In this document: positions 1 to 8,226 of the stretch, in pieces
How positions within the stretch are numbered: the stretch's first letter is position 1
How the letters are laid out: each line of letters opens with the position of its first letter
Notes under the pieces: model-generated
Told to the model about the DNA's origin: nothing
The model's database searches: none
The model's input: only the letters and a program-made list of their open reading frames with translations
Origin: Promethearchaeia archaeon
Lineage (GTDB): Archaea; Asgardarchaeota; Lokiarchaeia; Sigyniarchaeales; SOKP01
Assembly (NCBI GenBank): GCA_029856155.1
Contig: JAHQWL010000089.1
Location: 1 to 16,224 of the forward strand
Direction of reading: 5' to 3'
DNA length: 16,224 bases
Position numbers and translations under genes: made by a program

Positions 1-675
1 ACTGTAAATAGTAACACTTTTGGAGGGATTGCTTTAGGCTTTAGTGATTATAATAATATTTTTGGAAATAACGCATTTAACAATAGTCAACATGGAATAG
101 CTATAACTTCAGGTGAATATAACTCCATTTCAGAAAACACAGTAAATAATAACACTTTTAGTGGGATTTGTTTAGAAGGAAGTTCTTATAATACAATTTC
201 TATAAATAATGTATTTAACAATAAGTTTGGGATACTTATTTCCGATTTGTTAATGATGCCATGCTACTATAATACTATTTTGGCGAATAACGTAAGGAAC
301 AATAGGAAGTATGGGATAGGGTTTGATTCTTGGGCTACTAGTAATGATGTGTATCGTAATAGTTTTAATAATTCTCTCAATGCATATGATAATGGTTCGA
401 ATAATTGGGATAATGGATTTGTAGGAAATTATTGGAGTGATTATACTGGGGTAGACGAAGATGGAGATGGAATTGGTGATACTCCATATAGTATCAATGG
501 TATGGCGCGGAGTAAAGATAATTATCCATTGGTTCCGAATTCGAATTCGGATCATCCCAATTCAGTTCCTGAAAACCCTTTTGAAAGACTTATCCTAATT
601 ACGATTATTAGTGGAGGAGCTGTGATAGGTGTAGCAACTGTCCTATTAATTATAAGAAAAAGGAAAAGAATGTGA
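1..675 (+). CDS. 5'-partial right-handed parallel beta-helix (NosD/CASH-like) cell-surface protein with C-terminal membrane anchor
   Basis: Frame 1 is open from base 1 (TVNSNTFGGIALGFSDYNNIFGNNAFNNSQHGI...), upstream of the track's 247 start. It has Asn-rich beta-helix repeats, the typical GNYWSDYxGxDxDGDGIGDTPY motif, a Pro/Asn linker, a hydrophobic helix and an RKRKRM tail. Confidence 0.9.
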   Translation, partial: TVNSNTFGGIALGFSDYNNIFGNNAFNNSQHGIAITSGEYNSISENTVNNNTFSGICLEGSSYNTISINNVFNNKFGILISDLLMMPCYYNTILANNVRNNRKYGIGFDSWATSNDVYRNSFNNSLNAYDNGSNNWDNGFVGNYWSDYTGVDEDGDGIGDTPYSINGMARSKDNYPLVPNSNSDHPNSVPENPFERLILITIISGGAVIGVATVLLIIRKRKRM

Positions 676-920
676 TAATTCAGTTTTTGTTGCCTACTTT
701 TGGTTGGAAGTTCTTCTCCTTAATTTATATCCAACTTATTTATAACTACCTTGGATAATCCCTACTATAAAATATAATATAATTTTAAAAAAGTTGAGCC
801 TCATTCTTCTTAAATATTTAATTTACCTTCAAAGCTAATATCAAAAATTAAGATTCTTCTTAGCGAAAGATTTTTAATATTTTAAATTAAATTGAATAAT
901 ACTAAATTAGAGGTGATTTT

Positions 921-1289
921 ATGCCAAAAATTGAACATTTTGAAATCAATGCAGATGATCCACTCAGAGCAAAAAGCTTTTATGAAAAAGTTTTTGAGTG
1001 GAAAATCGAAAAATGGAAAGGCCCTTTGGAATATTGGACAATAGAAGCGGGGAAAGAAGATGAAGAAGGAATTAATGGGGGTTTGCAGAAAAGAGAAAAA
1101 CCTAATGATCAAATATTTAATTATATTCCCGTATCCAATGTAGATGATTTTAAAAACAAAATTGAACAATCTGGGGGTACTATTGAAAGTCCCAAAATTA
1201 CTGTACCGGGAGTAGGTTATTTCTATATGTTTAAGGACACTGAAGGAAATAAACTTGGTATTATGGAACATGACAAAAATGCAAAATAA
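921..1289 (+). CDS. VOC/glyoxalase/bleomycin-resistance family protein
   Basis: HFEI.ADD..RAK.FY..VF.W, GINGG, and PGVG....FKDTEGN.LG motifs; GAGGTGA RBS upstream. Confidence 0.92.
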   Translation: MPKIEHFEINADDPLRAKSFYEKVFEWKIEKWKGPLEYWTIEAGKEDEEGINGGLQKREKPNDQIFNYIPVSNVDDFKNKIEQSGGTIESPKITVPGVGYFYMFKDTEGNKLGIMEHDKNAK

Positions 1290-1396
1290 ACCTGTCTTTT
1301 TCTTTATTATTTTTTCGATATTAATTCAAAAAAAAGTTAAATTAATTAAAAACACCAAAGGGAACCTAGTTAGTTGTTATTTGCATTAAAATTAAA

Positions 1397-1416
1397 GGGA
1401 GTATAAAAAAACTCCC
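1397..1416. terminator. Short GC-rich hairpin between convergent transcription units
   Basis: GGGAGT-ataaaaaa-ACTCCC; long A tracts at 1441-1480 (T tracts on the minus strand) follow the microprotein operon. Confidence 0.4.
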
Positions 1417-1487
1417 CCCTTCATTGTGGAATGGAAAAGAAATCAATAAACATAAAAAAAAAATAAAAAATTAAAAAAAATTTTACT

Positions 1488-1586
1488 CTATCGACCGCAA
1501 TCCTTACAAATCGCTCTCGAATCCGTAAAATCGAGCTTTATCTCTTTACCACATTTCATACAATTTATTCTTATTCTTTTTTTCAT
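1488..1586 (-). CDS. 32-aa zinc-ribbon microprotein MKKRIRINCMKCGKEIKLDFTDSRAICKDCGR
   Basis: Hand-translated. GAGGGA 5 nt before the ATG; CxxC-x14-CxxC; paralog of 1604-1744. Confidence 0.85.
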   Translation of the reverse strand: MKKRIRINCMKCGKEIKLDFTDSRAICKDCGR

Positions 1587-1603
1587 AACAATCCCTCTTT
1601 TAA

Positions 1604-1744
1604 TTAAAAATCAAAATTTTTTGTAGTTCTTGTGTTATGCTCTATTTGACTTTTTCGACACTTCCTACAAAGTGCCCTCGAGTTCGTAAGGTCTAGTTTT
1701 ATTTCTTTACCGCATTTTCTACAGTTTATTATTATTTTGGCCAT
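1604..1744 (-). CDS. 46-aa zinc-ribbon microprotein MAKIIINCRKCGKEIKLDLTNSRALCRKCRKSQIEHNTRTTKNFDF
   Basis: Hand-translated. AAGTGA RBS-like motif; CxxC-x14-CxxC; 18/24 identical to 1488-1586 over the core. Confidence 0.85.
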   Translation of the reverse strand: MAKIIINCRKCGKEIKLDLTNSRALCRKCRKSQIEHNTRTTKNFDF

Positions 1745-1784
1745 ATTTTTCACTTAATTTTTTAAATAAATAGGAAAAATAATT

Positions 1785-1883
1785 TTAATAGGAAATATAT
1801 CGCGAATGACAACTTCCTACATCATTCGAAATAATTATTAGTCTCGTCTTTTTCTTCATTCGTTTAACTCGCATTTTCACCAT
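1785..1883 (-). CDS. Basic micropeptide (MVK)MRVKRMKKKTRLIIISNDVGSCHSRYISY, 29-32 aa
   Basis: GGAGG/GGTGA precede ATGs at 1883 and 1874; the ORF fills the gap between co-oriented small ORFs. Confidence 0.55.
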   Translation of the reverse strand: MVKMRVKRMKKKTRLIIISNDVGSCHSRYISY

Positions 1884-1903
1884 CCTCCAATATCAAACTT
1901 TTA

Positions 1904-2140
1904 TTATCGATTATATGTCAGTCCCCTATAAACGATAGAGTCGACTTTATTTTTCACGTTATTGATATTAATTCTCCCCTGGTGTTGTTTAGCGTGTTTT
2001 CTAAATTTGAATTTAACTCTAATTTGCTCTGGTTCTTCCTTAAGATTCTCTGCTTTTTCCTCAACTAAAGGAATAATTATATAGAGACCTTGATTTTCAT
2101 TCTCTAATTTTTCTAATACCTGAACCATTTTTTTTATCAC
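1904..2140 (-). CDS. Small hypothetical protein (likely start ATG 2128, MVQVLEK...), acidic N-half and basic C-half; first gene of the microprotein operon
   Basis: ORF track; GTGA motif upstream of ATG 2128; co-oriented with three downstream small ORFs. Confidence 0.7.
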   Translation of the reverse strand: MIKKMVQVLEKLENENQGLYIIIPLVEEKAENLKEEPEQIRVKFKFRKHAKQHQGRININNVKNKVDSIVYRGLTYNR

Positions 2141-2173
2141 TTTTTTTTATTTTTACTTATAATTTTATTTATC

Positions 2174-2240
2174 TCGCACTCCAATATATAGATTCGCACT
2201 TCGTACTTCATGCGAAGTTCATACTTTATTCCGAAGTGAA
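2174..2240. promoter_or_regulatory. Candidate operator array in the divergent promoter
   Basis: Heptads TTCGCAC-TTCGTAC-TTCATGC; pseudo-palindrome TTCGTA-CTTCA-TGCGAA (2200-2216); CACTTCG/CGAAGTG inverted pair (2197-2203 and 2232-2238); a similar element occurs at 8190-8226. Confidence 0.55.
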
Positions 2241-2306
2241 AAGCTTAAAAAGTATTAGAAGTATATTTATGTAAGAAAATAAGATCTTATCGGACTGTAT
2301 TTTATT

Positions 2307-5267
2307 ATGAGTAGATCAGAGGGAATTTTATATCCTCCAGGGGAGATATTAAACCCCATTATAGGAAAAACTGATTTTGAATATGTAATATTATGGATGC
2401 TCAGCAATAATGATATTTGCGAGTGGTCAGATTTTACTGCGGAAATTAGCGAATCGACATTATCAGGTAATTTAAAAAAATTAATGAATAAGAATTATAT
2501 TAAAAAGCCTGAAAAGGGAAAATATCAGATCACCTCGCAAGGGAGAGATAGATTTAGTGAATTAGTATACGATAAAAAATCGGGGCAGAGGAGATTAAAA
2601 TATCCACCGAAAGCAATACTTAAAATTAGAAATTATGATCATTGGATTTTATGGATGCTTTACAACAATTATTCATGTAAATGGTCAGATTTTAAACAAG
2701 CACCGCTATTAATTAATCAATCCTCCTTATCTAATAATCTTAATTCATTGATGGATGATGGATTTGTTGCAAGAGAGAATAAAGAATATATAATAACACC
2801 ATCGGGAAAAACCGAGTATCTTAGAGTATTGAAATCCTATGATTTAGACCGTCAATCTATTTTAGAACAAGAAAGCAAGAGAATTGAAGAAATTACAGAA
2901 AAAACGAGTAGATTCTTTAAGAAGTATAAAATAGAAGATGATGAGTTAAAATTTCGGTATCTTGATAATATTCTGAAATTATCTTATTCTAAAGTTGAAT
3001 CGATGCTAAAAGAAGAAGATTTCAATAAAATTTTGTTGTTCCTTTCGATTAATCATCCTAATCAATATCCTGAGTATATTTCGCCTGTAGATTTCTCAGT
3101 GAAATATAAGATTGATAGAACTACTTTAGAATATTACATAAGGGAAATGATTGATAATGAGTTTTTTGGTATAAAATTTTTTAAAATGGAGATTGAAAAA
3201 GGAGGAACTTATTATTTTCAGAAGAATGAGACTTTAGAAAAAATACTTAATGCAATTGTAGAAAAACATATTACAAAATTTACATACTTAAATAAATTTC
3301 ATGAAACTACGATAACAGATGTGGGATTGCTATTAGATATAATATTAAACGATATTTGTAATAATCTATTCAATGAACATCTAAAACCCTCATTAAAATC
3401 ATTTTTACCTGAGTATATTAAATATTTAGCATATAAAATTGAAACAGAGAAGAAATTAGTTGATAGTGAAGCCAAATTAGCAGGATTTATATGGCAAAAT
3501 GTTAATGAAGAATTCCAAACCTTTGATCCTTCAAAAATGGCAATTGCTAGAGAAGAGGATGAGTTATATTATACAATGGATAGCAGCACTTTCAATGTAT
3601 TAGATATTGTGGTTTTGTCTAAATTTTTTTATTTAAACACAAGTGTAGTTCAGGAGACCTATAATTTGAATAAAATAGATATTTATAATAAAATAATAAA
3701 AAATTTATATAGAAATAAAGTTTCTAAAGCAAGGGAACTATCTCAAAATATTACCACTAAGATAAAAACCATAAATCAATTAATAATAAAGGATATTATA
3801 GCTACAGCAGAGAATAACTTAGATGATTCAGTTAAAATTACTTATGAAATTATTGATAAATATCCAAATGAATTTATAGGATATTTATTACAATCAATCA
3901 CTTACTTATTGATTGATAATTATGAAAAGTCTTTAAAAGTCATTGAGGACGCATTAAAAATAACACCTAATGTTCTTCTAATCTGCCAAAAAGCTCAGAT
4001 TTTAATGAGAACATCTCAAGGAGCTAAAGCATTAGATTATATTAATGATGCACTATCTCAGTATCCAGATAATTCAACATTATTAAGAACAAAATACTTA
4101 ATTTATATTACATATTGGATGGCACTAGTAAAGGATTATAATGAGCCTCTTGATGTAATAAATCAATTAACCAATCTGAATCAAAAGGATCAAGAGATTT
4201 TACTCTTAAAAAGTCTTTATTATTGTCTAATCAATAAATATAAAGAAGCAAAGCGTTTAATAATAAATGAAATTGATTTTAATAATTTTAAAAAAAATCC
4301 CAGAATTGAAACCATTGCTTACTTTATCTTGGTTTATTCTTATTTAGCACGCGGTAAATTTGATAAAGCTTTAGAAACTGCAAATCTAGTTTTAACAATA
4401 TATCCCAAACATCCTACTTCATTTTTTACAAAAGCCTTAGTGATTGGATATAATTTGATTTATAGATTTACATTTAAGGAGCCAAATATTGATGCTTTTA
4501 CTGAATTGATAACATCTACTCTCTCTTTTGAAAAAATTAATTATAATAAAACAATTTATCTTCTATTCCAATCACAAGTTTTAAATGGGCTTAGAAAATA
4601 CGATGAAAGCATTAATTCTATTGATACTGCTATTGAAATAGCCCCAACATTGAATTTTCTACATGCTAGGAAGGCATACTTATTAATAATATCTAAGAAA
4701 GAATCTCAAGCATTAAGTTTAATTAATGAACTGTTAGAAAGTCGTCAACCATTGAAGTATAGCCTATTGAAACAAAAATCTTATGTCCAAATCATTCTAA
4801 AACAATATGACGAAGCTTTGAAGACTGTTAATGAAGCAATTGAATTATATCCCCACGATAACGATTTTATCAATAATAAAGCCATGATCTTAGGTTATTT
4901 GGGAAGAAGAGAGAAAGCTATTGAAACTGCTGAACATCTAATAAGCCTTAATCCAAAATATGGAAATTCTTATGATACATATGGTGAAGTATTGATGGTT
5001 CTTGAAGAATATGAAAAAGCTATTGAAAAATTTAAAGAAGCTTTAACCCTTGAACCCACTGGATGGTTTGCCTATGAAACTTGTTTAAAAATGGGACAAT
5101 GTTTTAAGGAACTTGGAAATATTGAAAAAGCTCTTGAATATTATGAGAAAGGAGAAAAATTGACAGAAAAGATGCATCCTAGTTACAGGGATAATTATCT
5201 AGCCAAAACAGAGAAATTAATTTCTGAAGCTAAAATTTTACTTAGAAAATCGAAAAATAGTGAATAA
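2307..5267 (+). CDS. Large protein with two tandem N-terminal winged-HTH repeats and a C-terminal TPR array
   Basis: Internal repeat YPP..IL...(DFEYV/NYDHW)ILWML.NN..C.WSDF....I..S.LS.NL..LM......Y.IT..G occurs twice; TPR consensus helices in the C-half (e.g. YDTYGEVLMVLEEYEKAIEKFKEALTLEP). Confidence 0.88.
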   Translation: MSRSEGILYPPGEILNPIIGKTDFEYVILWMLSNNDICEWSDFTAEISESTLSGNLKKLMNKNYIKKPEKGKYQITSQGRDRFSELVYDKKSGQRRLKYPPKAILKIRNYDHWILWMLYNNYSCKWSDFKQAPLLINQSSLSNNLNSLMDDGFVARENKEYIITPSGKTEYLRVLKSYDLDRQSILEQESKRIEEITEKTSRFFKKYKIEDDELKFRYLDNILKLSYSKVESMLKEEDFNKILLFLSINHPNQYPEYISPVDFSVKYKIDRTTLEYYIREMIDNEFFGIKFFKMEIEKGGTYYFQKNETLEKILNAIVEKHITKFTYLNKFHETTITDVGLLLDIILNDICNNLFNEHLKPSLKSFLPEYIKYLAYKIETEKKLVDSEAKLAGFIWQNVNEEFQTFDPSKMAIAREEDELYYTMDSSTFNVLDIVVLSKFFYLNTSVVQETYNLNKIDIYNKIIKNLYRNKVSKARELSQNITTKIKTINQLIIKDIIATAENNLDDSVKITYEIIDKYPNEFIGYLLQSITYLLIDNYEKSLKVIEDALKITPNVLLICQKAQILMRTSQGAKALDYINDALSQYPDNSTLLRTKYLIYITYWMALVKDYNEPLDVINQLTNLNQKDQEILLLKSLYYCLINKYKEAKRLIINEIDFNNFKKNPRIETIAYFILVYSYLARGKFDKALETANLVLTIYPKHPTSFFTKALVIGYNLIYRFTFKEPNIDAFTELITSTLSFEKINYNKTIYLLFQSQVLNGLRKYDESINSIDTAIEIAPTLNFLHARKAYLLIISKKESQALSLINELLESRQPLKYSLLKQKSYVQIILKQYDEALKTVNEAIELYPHDNDFINNKAMILGYLGRREKAIETAEHLISLNPKYGNSYDTYGEVLMVLEEYEKAIEKFKEALTLEPTGWFAYETCLKMGQCFKELGNIEKALEYYEKGEKLTEKMHPSYRDNYLAKTEKLISEAKILLRKSKNSE

Positions 5268-5281
5268 TCCAAATTAAAAAT

Positions 5282-5953
5282 GTGATCTTAATGGATTACC
5301 GATTTGTAAAAGCATTCGAGTTTAATTTTAATTTTGGAACACTTTTATCAGTTGATTTCAGCTCCTGTTCTGAAGATTCAGACTTAATTAACCTTACTGA
5401 AGAAATATTTAATGAAATTAGAGATTGTATTAATATTCGAGGTATTCCCAGTCTAATTTGGTTTAAGGGAATAACCGACTCTGTAAATCCTTCAAATTTT
5501 ATGTTGATTACAAAAATGATTAGAGCGGTATATCCAAGACAAAAAATTGGAATTTATTTGAATTGTGGAATTTTTCAATATGAGGATATTCGAAATGTTT
5601 TTTATGGGTGTGATTTGGTTGCTATTAATCTCAATACCGTTGAGCACTTTCAATTTTCAAAAATTAATACATGTCCTGAATTTATAAATTCTAAAGCCGT
5701 ATTAAATGGAATAATAGAATTTAGTAAAACTTTTAAGGGAAAATTAGGCATTTATACCATGTTTTTAAAAGGTGTTAATGATAACGTTAAGAATGTTAAA
5801 AGGCTAAAAGAATTCTTATTGAATGTCATGCCAGATCATTACTCTGTCAGTAATTACACATTAAATGGCTTTGAACCTGTTTCGACAGACTTTAAAAAAG
5901 GAGTTAAAGAAATCTTGGAGGATCTTCCTTTCAAGGTTATTTATATGTTCTAA
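5282..5953 (+). CDS. Degenerate radical-SAM-fold protein (COG0731-like) lacking CxxxCxxC; alternative start ATG 5291
   Basis: Recognisable GTLLSVDF, EEIFNEI, KIGIYLNC, DLVAINLN, FSKIN, ILNGIIEFSK-like, FKGKL.I.TMFLKGVNDN segments; no three-Cys cluster motif. Confidence 0.72.
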   Translation: MILMDYRFVKAFEFNFNFGTLLSVDFSSCSEDSDLINLTEEIFNEIRDCINIRGIPSLIWFKGITDSVNPSNFMLITKMIRAVYPRQKIGIYLNCGIFQYEDIRNVFYGCDLVAINLNTVEHFQFSKINTCPEFINSKAVLNGIIEFSKTFKGKLGIYTMFLKGVNDNVKNVKRLKEFLLNVMPDHYSVSNYTLNGFEPVSTDFKKGVKEILEDLPFKVIYMF

Positions 5954-5989
5954 TTTATATCTGGTTTTAGCCCAAAGTTATTAAATTGT

Positions 5990-6454
5990 TCAACATGGTT
6001 CAAATTTAAAACCGCAACATTCACATAGATTTTCAATATTTTCAATGTATTTTAACATTGAATTATACCATTTGTCCAATAATTTTTTTAACTGGATTTT
6101 AATTGTATCCATATTTTTAGCATTATACACATAAAGATATCCTTGTTTTTTAGCATCTTTTATTCCCTTTACTTTAATATAATCTTTCATAGACATTGAA
6201 CTACGTTCAACAAGTTTTAATTCAGATAAATCTTGAACAGCTCTTTGAATTGAGCTTCTATCCATCTTTAATGCTTGTGCTACTTCAGATGTTCTCACAT
6301 CTTTATTTTTTAATAAATATTCAAGGACTTTAGATTCTGTCTTGTTCAAGCCTAAAATACAACTAAATAATCGATCACTAGAAAAAATTTCTTTTTTATC
6401 TAATAACCTGTCTATTATCTCAAATTCTTTTAATTGTTTTCCAATTACTTCCAT
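5990..6454 (-). CDS. HTH transcriptional regulator (TrmB/COG3355-like) with Cys-rich C-terminus
   Basis: CILGLNKTESKVL..LL, TSEVAQALKMDRSSIQRAVQDL..L.LVER, GYLYVY, L...LDKWY pattern; ends LCECCGFKFEPC. Confidence 0.85.
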   Translation of the reverse strand: MEVIGKQLKEFEIIDRLLDKKEIFSSDRLFSCILGLNKTESKVLEYLLKNKDVRTSEVAQALKMDRSSIQRAVQDLSELKLVERSSMSMKDYIKVKGIKDAKKQGYLYVYNAKNMDTIKIQLKKLLDKWYNSMLKYIENIENLCECCGFKFEPC

Positions 6455-7066: not shown

Positions 7067-8005
7067 TTATTCTTCTGTTAGAGATTCTATTTCTTTTTGC
7101 TGATTTAATCTTGAAGTTTTTCTCCGAGATGATACAATAATTTGGAAGTCTAAATCTTTTTTATATAAATCAGCTGCTCTTGCTATCTCCTTAGCAATAT
7201 CTTCCATTATAGAGTCTTCTTTAATACTAGCTCCGTTAAACATTGGTATTTCTGCATATTTTTCAATCAAACCTACGGTTATTTCCTGTGGTAAAACATC
7301 AGATCTATCTTTAAGTGCCATAGTGATCCTCTCTTCCAAATTTACATAAATTTCTCCCTTACTAAATTGACAATCTACGCATTTAGCACTTCGATTTTTA
7401 AAAATATTTAATATTATTAACCCTGTAATAAATTTGAAGTTTCTTTTTAAAATATCTTTAATATCTCTATTATCAGGATCATTGATGTATTGTTGAATAT
7501 GTTTCCCCGCATTAGTATATAATTTACAAAAAAATAAACCTCGATGAAAATAAGCGGGAACTATGCAGAATATTCTCGTAAACCAAAAAGGTGTGATTCC
7601 AATCGGTGGTTTTTCACGAAAGAAATAATAAGCTACTCTCCCCTCTCGTTCTGTATGTAGAGTAGACTCTTTTTTTAGCATATTCAAATATGTTGAAGTT
7701 GTAGAGCGAGCAATCTCTTTAAAATATCTTTTATATTCTTTCTCTACTTCACCTGTAGTAAGTTTGTTCTTTCCTTCTAAGTAGTATTGCAAAACTATTC
7801 CTAAAATTCGGCTTTCGTGAAGACGGCCCGTTTTTATCTGTTGTTCTTCTGCTTCATCTTCTCTAATTTGATATAAATATGCAATTTCCGGGGCATAATC
7901 TTGAATAACTTTATCTATAAGTTTAAGTTCGGGATCAACTTCTTCTATTTCTGCTGATTTAGTGCTTTCTATTATTAATTCATCAATCTTAGATTTTTCA
8001 GACAA
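7067..8005 (-). CDS. Hypothetical winged-HTH protein with internal CxxC
   Basis: LTTGEVEKEY....IARSTTSTYLNMLKKE..L..EREGRVAYYFF resembles an ArsR/BlaI-type wHTH; CVDC in the C-terminal domain; TTG start. Confidence 0.75.
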   Translation of the reverse strand: MSEKSKIDELIIESTKSAEIEEVDPELKLIDKVIQDYAPEIAYLYQIREDEAEEQQIKTGRLHESRILGIVLQYYLEGKNKLTTGEVEKEYKRYFKEIARSTTSTYLNMLKKESTLHTEREGRVAYYFFREKPPIGITPFWFTRIFCIVPAYFHRGLFFCKLYTNAGKHIQQYINDPDNRDIKDILKRNFKFITGLIILNIFKNRSAKCVDCQFSKGEIYVNLEERITMALKDRSDVLPQEITVGLIEKYAEIPMFNGASIKEDSIMEDIAKEIARAADLYKKDLDFQIIVSSRRKTSRLNQQKEIESLTEE

Positions 8006-8189
8006 TTTAAAAAACTCTTTTAGTTAATTATAATATCTATTTGTTTTACCTTGTTTTTAGGGGGTATTATTCTATGTATTCACTTCGCCTATCATAAAAT
8101 AAATTCCGTTCTACATCAGTAACTTGTAAAAAATTGATTTTCTATTAATTAAATTTAATTAGATTTTCAATTCATAAATAGAGTATTAA

Positions 8190-8226
8190 TTCGCACTTGA
8201 TGTGAACTATGAACTTTAAATGAAGT
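8190..8226. promoter_or_regulatory. Candidate operator related to 2193-2240
   Basis: TTCGCA-CTTGA-TGTGAA matches 2200-2216 at 14/17; the reverse complement of 8203-8226 matches 2205-2228 at 19/24. Confidence 0.5.

Follow-up and report, generated by a model that had tools for sequence, protein, structure and literature searches.

The window, a 16,224-nucleotide stretch of a contig from a Promethearchaeia archaeon, raises the question of whether the apparently empty spacer of ~1 kb beside a large regulatory gene holds genes of its own and, if so, what relation their products bear to the regulator. Annotations of archaeal genomes mostly omit small proteins, and to our knowledge nothing is known of such proteins in Asgard archaea, which among prokaryotes are the closest relatives of eukaryotes. 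A preliminary description made from the nucleotide sequence proposed that the spacer conceals an operon of four microprotein genes, the last two encoding related zinc ribbons. The minus strand of positions 1200–2500 was read and its open reading frames were listed, which located the four frames where that description had placed them:

1904..2128, minus strand: ORF1, 74 amino acids from an ATG, or 78 from a GTG at 2140
1785..1883, minus strand: ORF2, 32 amino acids, or 29 from a second ATG at 1874
1604..1744, minus strand: ORF3, predicted long zinc ribbon of 46 amino acids, C4 type (CxxC-x14-CxxC), with a conserved tail ending NFDF
1488..1586, minus strand: ORF4, predicted short zinc ribbon of 32 amino acids, a paralogue of ORF3 that stops directly after the second cysteine pair

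The frames are separated by 20, 40, and 17 nt in the order ORF1 to ORF4. Each start is preceded at a spacing of 5–9 nt by a Shine-Dalgarno-like motif (GTGAT, GGAGG, GTGA, and GAGGGA, respectively), and these motifs are retained in orthologues. As the 16S 3′ end that defines the anti-Shine-Dalgarno sequence was not found in this assembly, use of the motifs was judged from their enrichment, which amounted to 11.1% of long ORFs genome-wide compared to 1.7% in a control window. The ATG at 1874 of ORF2 is better spaced relative to GGAGG, is the start used in the closest relative, and is likely the genuine one. The 1-kb spacer is AT-rich and therefore rich in stop codons. When the spacer was shuffled 2000 times under a first-order Markov model, four same-strand ORFs of these sizes never arose, and 184 codons of the actual spacer lie in ORFs of ≥29 amino acids compared to 35 ± 37 in the shuffles. 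Chance does not account for the four-ORF set.

The expectation that the frames and their cysteine spacing would be conserved in related genomes was borne out by six-frame whole-genome searches and tblastn. The six-frame searches placed relatives of ORF3/ORF4 and of ORF1 next to each other on the same contigs in many species of the genus. Eighteen loci were fetched from relatives and six window proteins were placed in them by tblastn. The gene order in these relatives comprises a gene for a 223-amino-acid protein, the gene for a ~990-amino-acid regulator with winged-helix (wHTH) and tetratricopeptide repeat (TPR) domains and, on the opposite strand, ORF1-ORF2-ORF3-ORF4. Nei-Gojobori estimates of dN/dS, in which dS is close to saturation in most pairs, are well under 1 for every gene (0.05–0.43 overall), as had been anticipated: 0.18–0.43 for ORF1, 0.11–0.40 for ORF2, 0.13–0.34 for ORF3, and 0.05–0.11 for ORF4, which is the most constrained of the four. 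Thus, all four ORFs are genuine protein-coding microgenes under purifying selection. The earlier characterization of the genes as hidden was overstated. Several public MAG annotations already list orthologues of ORF1 and of both ribbons as hypothetical proteins, and public protein collections contain ~50 ribbon-family clusters and ~80 ORF1 clusters, all from Promethearchaeota (Asgard) MAGs, in which a few entries carry automatically assigned names such as HypA or RpoP and several bear the label “hypothetical protein.” The cassette genes are unstudied rather than wholly unannotated, and no paper on them was found in the literature.

All four peptides are basic (net charge +4 to +8) and hydrophilic (GRAVY −0.38 to −0.80), and no signal peptide or hydrophobic body was found in any of them. 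Searches of the peptides against Pfam, NCBIfam, and PADLOC gave sub-threshold generic zinc-ribbon matches only, with nothing for ORF1 or ORF2; Rfam gave no match within positions 1–6000 of the window. The core shared by ORF3 and ORF4 is identical at 18 of 24 residues, in agreement with the preliminary description. As to the claim that many nucleotide differences between the two are synonymous, in 29 aligned codons there are 19 identical residues, 9 of which are specified by different codons. Across 49 sequences the four cysteines show little or no variation. The first knuckle (CxKCG) is nearly invariant, the second reads CxxCG in short ribbons and CxxC in long ones, and both proteins would be expected to bind zinc. 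An AlphaFold2 model of ORF3 produced with the family alignment (pLDDT 65) shows a β-hairpin bearing the first cysteine pair and a helix that starts from the second pair. A Foldseek search with this model returned nothing below E 0.88, the top rows (YacG, HVO_2753, and Rpo12) being insignificant, and the ESM Atlas returned unnamed clusters only. No ribbon fused into a longer protein was found, an observation that carries little weight.

The first-knuckle region and spacer of the ribbons resemble those of the Thermococcales Rpo12 ribbon, which is the closest sequence likeness detected (PDB profile E 2.6e-4; 29 bits with the NCBIfam model compared to its cut-off of 89). The same NCBIfam model also gives matches, below its cut-off, in bacterial control genomes. 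Assignment of ORF3 and ORF4 to Rpo12/RpoP (PF03604) was rejected: ORF4 scores 13.6 bits against a Pfam cut-off of 24, whereas the true RpoP of this genome, encoded beside TFB at G000:C34, scores 35.8 bits. The basic tail that follows the second cysteine pair in that RpoP is absent in ORF4, and the tail of ORF3 is unrelated to it.

The nearest described proteins are the haloarchaeal zinc-finger microproteins and Brz. The former comprise C(P)XCG one-domain proteins of Haloferax volcanii such as HVO_2753 and HVO_0758 (PMC6562870, PMC10716476, PMC11241148), some predicted members of which do not bind zinc (PMC11241148). Like these archaeal proteins of <70 amino acids, many of which are basic and which carry one C4 zinc module with CxxCG-type knuckles, the ribbons of 32 and 46 amino acids possess two CxxC(G) knuckles. 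In contrast, the ribbons form a tandem duplicated pair within a conserved cassette that accompanies a single regulator family and are confined to one Asgard genus, with few weak matches beyond it. No significant PDB sequence or fold match links them to the HVO proteins, of which HVO_2753 appeared only at a Foldseek E of ~1. Brz, a small zinc-finger regulator of the bop-brp region in Halobacterium salinarum (PMC2253796), likewise has its gene within a regulatory cluster and influences transcription alongside larger regulators. Compared by description only, Brz stands alone as one gene next to a GAF/PAS-type activator, whereas the cassette is multi-genic and divergent from a wHTH-TPR gene.

ORF1 has a conserved N-terminus, a short isoleucine-rich strand, a helix rich in lysine and glutamate, and a conserved C-terminal motif. 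The AlphaFold2 model with the family alignment (pLDDT 64) shows a long helix at residues 24–67 and a disordered N-terminus. An ORF1 profile searched against 1.84 billion representative proteins retrieved 33 relatives only, all of which are stand-alone proteins of 67–101 amino acids, and no longer fused forms were found among them. A 325-amino-acid wHTH gene occupies the same slot in some species; derivation of ORF1 from a fragment of this gene was rejected as the two lack profile similarity. ORF2 has a basic N-terminus and an aromatic C-terminus, the latter conserved and invariant in the alignment, together with a strand of the form Ile-Ile-Ile-x-Asn. It is conserved in at least 10 species, with identities of 52–78% in the loci of relatives.

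The cassette diverges from the regulator gene across a control region, the elements of which are as follows together with the two genes on the plus strand:

2307..5267, plus strand: gene for the (wHTH)2-TPR regulator, 986 amino acids, with Pfam matches to HTH_34 and MarR N-terminal domains and many TPR matches from residue ~470
5282..5953, plus strand: gene for the 223-amino-acid protein, 14 nt downstream of the regulator gene and co-conserved with it
2173..2251, unstranded: divergent control region, almost identical at the nucleotide level in the species compared
2183..2192, minus strand: well conserved TATA box of the cassette promoter, preceding ORF1
2193..2209, unstranded: direct repeats abutting the TATA box
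2205..2220, unstranded: palindrome
2239..2251, unstranded: AT-rich box on the regulator side

Pfam and NCBIfam searches with the regulator yielded generic TPR and wHTH matches only and no RRNPP family. The TPR is a protein- and peptide-binding fold. Examination of the electrostatic fit of the basic peptides to the TPR array gave no signal, the array being near neutral. The family defined by the N-terminal 333 residues of the regulator is present in 56 of the 68 genomes of one GTDB family, compared to none of 233 other Asgard genomes sampled. Genomes possess 2–10 copies, seven in the organism studied here, and the paralogues are 52–65% identical in the N-terminal domain. Within the 4.1-Mb genome the control-region block has a single further counterpart, a related site at 8188–8226 of the window, and at all seven regulator paralogues short repeats of the same type lie beside a TATA box. 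The related operator-like site is positioned upstream of a gene for a 312-amino-acid wHTH protein (7067..8005, minus strand), which is 59% identical to a gene of 300–325 codons that fills the ORF1/ORF2 slot in G014, G016, G001, G100, and G007. Based on the site and on this likeness, the 312-codon gene probably belongs to the same regulon. Separately, regulator paralogues of ~640–850 amino acids at L090 (G000:C65), L061 (G015), and L150 (G138) have a gene for a Rab/Ras-like small GTPase in the divergent position, instead of or after a microprotein gene.

The proposed synteny of the microgenes with the wHTH-TPR gene proved strong: the ~990-amino-acid regulator is the immediate divergent neighbor at ~27 of the ~40 ribbon loci in the genus, and a few copies (G007:C1, G020:C38, and G006) are distant from any regulator gene. 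Of the 53 species in the genus, 32 were found to possess the ribbon family. Elsewhere the order yielded no more than three matches, all weak (E 6e-6 to 6e-4), of which two fall within frames of ~320 amino acids. The full four-gene cassette accompanies the ~990-amino-acid orthogroup in seven species (G000, G005, G011, G021, G089, G100, and G088), and the four-gene form is one variant of the cassette. ORF1 is missing in G003 and G007, the long ribbon is missing in G009 and G013 and broken in G080, and some loci of the ~990-amino-acid group lack ORF2 and some the short ribbon. At L122 (G088) the four gene types are reordered as ORF1, long ribbon, ORF2, and short ribbon. At L047:5686–5766 (G003) the body of ORF2 is joined directly to the opening seven codons of ORF1, the remainder of which is deleted with the frame kept.

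A second module carries related genes. A cassette of its own, likewise divergent, accompanies the regulator paralogue group of 844 amino acids (G000:C67 and 25 loci in relatives) and encodes an ORF1-like protein of 82–84 amino acids, an ORF2-like peptide of 24–27 amino acids, and a zinc ribbon of another type with 58–70 amino acids. ORF1 and its counterpart in this module are homologous (hhalign 90%, E 2e-6), as are ORF2 and its counterpart (96%, E 6e-9), the latter comparison being made with independent rows after one shared row was removed. Homology between ORF3/ORF4 and the ribbon of the 844-amino-acid module was unsupported, only generic fold similarity being evident in profile-profile comparison. 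The possession by this paralogue of its own ORF1-like, ORF2-like, and ribbon set indicates that regulator and cassette have been duplicated together, the 844-amino-acid paralogue being an older one. The two modules often are located 8–10 kb apart on one contig (G009:C39, G021:C47, G003:C3, G011:C132, G085:C56, and others). Fourteen regulator loci were sampled in sister genera: most have an ORF1-like gene (71–95 amino acids) in the divergent slot, three have an ORF2-like peptide (23–28 amino acids), and one has a ribbon. As the sister genera retain ORF1-like and sometimes ORF2-like genes, the tandem ribbons are a genus-level addition. From these comparisons ORF1 emerges as the common partner of the regulator family at most loci examined, and ORF2 as a frequent one. 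A second case of tandem paralogous microgenes is present at L089 (G000:C102), where a regulator paralogue is accompanied by an ORF2-like gene of 25 codons followed by two copies of a different 28-amino-acid microprotein gene (1801–1887 and 2175–2261, minus strand).

The preliminary description viewed the four genes as one operon. That view may be too simple, as signals occur within the cassette as well as at its end:

1758..1783, minus strand: T-run followed by a TATA-like box in the ORF2/ORF3 spacer, kept in six species
1394..1484, minus strand: 3′ end of the cassette, with oligo-T runs at 1451–1484, a conserved 15-nt pyrimidine box at 1427–1441, and a hairpin at 1394–1419

The element at 1758–1783 is possibly an internal terminator, promoter, or attenuator. 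A single operon is therefore plausible, but the cassette may instead comprise two transcription units or include an attenuation point. The pyrimidine box and hairpin are situated 45–90 nt past ORF4 and accompany the cassette whatever gene comes next. The hairpin stems vary in sequence between species with pairing kept, and the element also occurs in the paralogue module; further sites noted with it are G000:C67:138–152, G000:C103:6200–6212, and L160:1495–1520. A genome search placed the complement of the box over the start codon of the G000:C74:212 gene (minus strand), the G005 orthologue of which (91% identical) is an SBP_bac_5 binding protein of Opp/Dpp type (Pfam E 3e-51). The box of the paralogue module matches this gene start over 15 contiguous bases, and that of the window matches it with a one-base bulge. 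The latter also is complementary over 14 bases to the start of a gene for a GH2 β-galactosidase. These matches are suggestive of an antisense role for the 3′ element.

The interpretation that we favor, to which we assign about an even chance, is that the cassette serves as partner to the divergently encoded (wHTH)2-TPR regulator, a lineage-specific protein that would control the intracellular microproteins and probably work with them as partners. The tandem winged helices of the regulator would bind the palindrome and the direct repeats that abut the TATA box, and this binding would set transcription of the cassette and probably also of the regulator's own gene. The cassette products would remain inside the cell. 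As ORF1 is kept at most loci across the family and ORF2 at many, these two are the most likely to dock on the regulator, either in feedback or in assembly of a complex. The two C4 ribbons may be duplicated genus-specific basic adaptors that bind a nucleic acid or protein target. Three observations count against partnership: cassette content varies between species, as considered below, fused forms of regulator and microprotein were not found, a result of slight weight, and the lone-chain models of ORF1 and ORF3 are of modest confidence. A more specific version is speculative and on the whole doubtful. Here the regulators and their cassettes would be an archaeal equivalent of receptor-peptide circuits, in which the TPR array would read the level of its own cognate microproteins, ORF1 and ORF2 foremost, and the 3′ tail of the cassette mRNA would pair with the start of the Opp/Dpp-type mRNA.

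The principal competitor, which is credible although somewhat unlikely, treats the microproteins purely as outputs. They would be effectors that act elsewhere, with nucleic acids and the machinery of transcription or translation among the conceivable targets, without contacting the regulator, and the TPR array would sense some other signal. The composition of the cassette is swappable between close species and the peptides are strongly basic, both of which accord with effector functions, as do the resemblance of the ribbons to those of the RNA polymerase subunit Rpo12 noted above and the pleiotropic roles of haloarchaeal zinc-finger microproteins (PMC6562870). Variation in cassette content between species with regulators that are 60–80% identical fits exchangeable outputs better than obligate ligands, and on this ground the ribbons, at least, would count as outputs of that kind. 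Nevertheless, joint duplication of regulator and cassette speaks against outputs alone, and the presence of ORF1 beside most regulator loci examined across genera suggests a tie closer than the sharing of a promoter.

Chance synteny, in which free-standing zinc-finger microproteins and unrelated small genes merely share the intergenic region of the regulator, is improbable: it would account for the few ribbon copies that are far from a regulator, but not readily for direct divergence at ~27 of ~40 loci or for recurrence of the arrangement in a second paralogue lineage. Comparable doubt attaches to a system of the RRNPP type, the receptor-peptide systems of Firmicutes and their phages that are best compared here through Rgg/SHP (PMC12700828). 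One or more peptides would leave the cell, be taken up again, and be detected by the TPR receptor. The likeness is one of layout, in that an HTH and TPR protein lies next to a short peptide gene, which is divergent in Rgg/SHP, and multiple paralogous receptor-peptide pairs exist per genome. Complementarity of the cassette 3′ box to the start of an Opp/Dpp-type binding-protein gene can be added in its favor, and no paper on archaeal RRNPP systems was found. Yet the receptor is an archaeal protein of 986 amino acids with two wHTH domains that shows no homology to Rap, Rgg, NprR, PlcR, PrgX, or AimR by Pfam and NCBIfam. Furthermore, the peptides are basic and hydrophilic and possess neither an export signal nor a hydrophobic core, two of them are predicted folded C4 zinc modules, and there is no exporter gene beside the cassette in the window. 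We regard this system as very improbable.

The radical-SAM RiPP systems offer another comparison, in which the microproteins would be precursors modified by the radical-SAM-like 223-amino-acid protein. The language-model features of this protein in the Atlas match radical SAM clusters at 0.92–0.93, and small tandem paralogous peptides are encoded nearby. The protein has no Pfam match, to radical SAM or otherwise, and the CxxxCxxC motif of the [4Fe-4S] cluster is present in none of 12 orthologues; radical peptide modification is therefore unlikely, and the protein is a candidate pseudo-enzyme. As the peptides also are conserved over their whole length and show no pattern of leader and core, a role as RiPP precursors has very little probability. 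Least tenable and strongly disfavored is the possibility that the frames are non-functional, whether chance frames or leader peptides of which translation alone matters (attenuation at isoleucine runs before the T-run), since the isoleucine runs in ORF1 and ORF2 and the conserved T-run after ORF2 are outweighed by amino acid constraint in all four genes, including the invariant ORF2 C-terminus and the four ribbon cysteines, and by failure of the shuffles to reproduce the ORF set.

The module of a regulator with its microproteins is previously undescribed. Relatives of ORF1, of ORF2, and of the ribbon family are confined to one lineage, and each of these families is linked to a regulator family that is itself lineage-specific and has expanded. 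The analogy that would excite most interest is a secreted-peptide system of the RRNPP kind, although the chemistry of the peptides is at odds with export. If the TPR array does read the microproteins and the mRNA tail is read as outlined above, an intracellular microprotein switch would be coupled to peptide uptake by a logic that is undescribed in Archaea. On the most conservative reading, the locus still adds three new microprotein families and a well-defined putative operator to the sparse picture of gene regulation in Asgard archaea. If the microproteins do partner the TPR regulators, they would constitute a new type of archaeal gene switch, the parts of which are small enough for direct biochemical tests.
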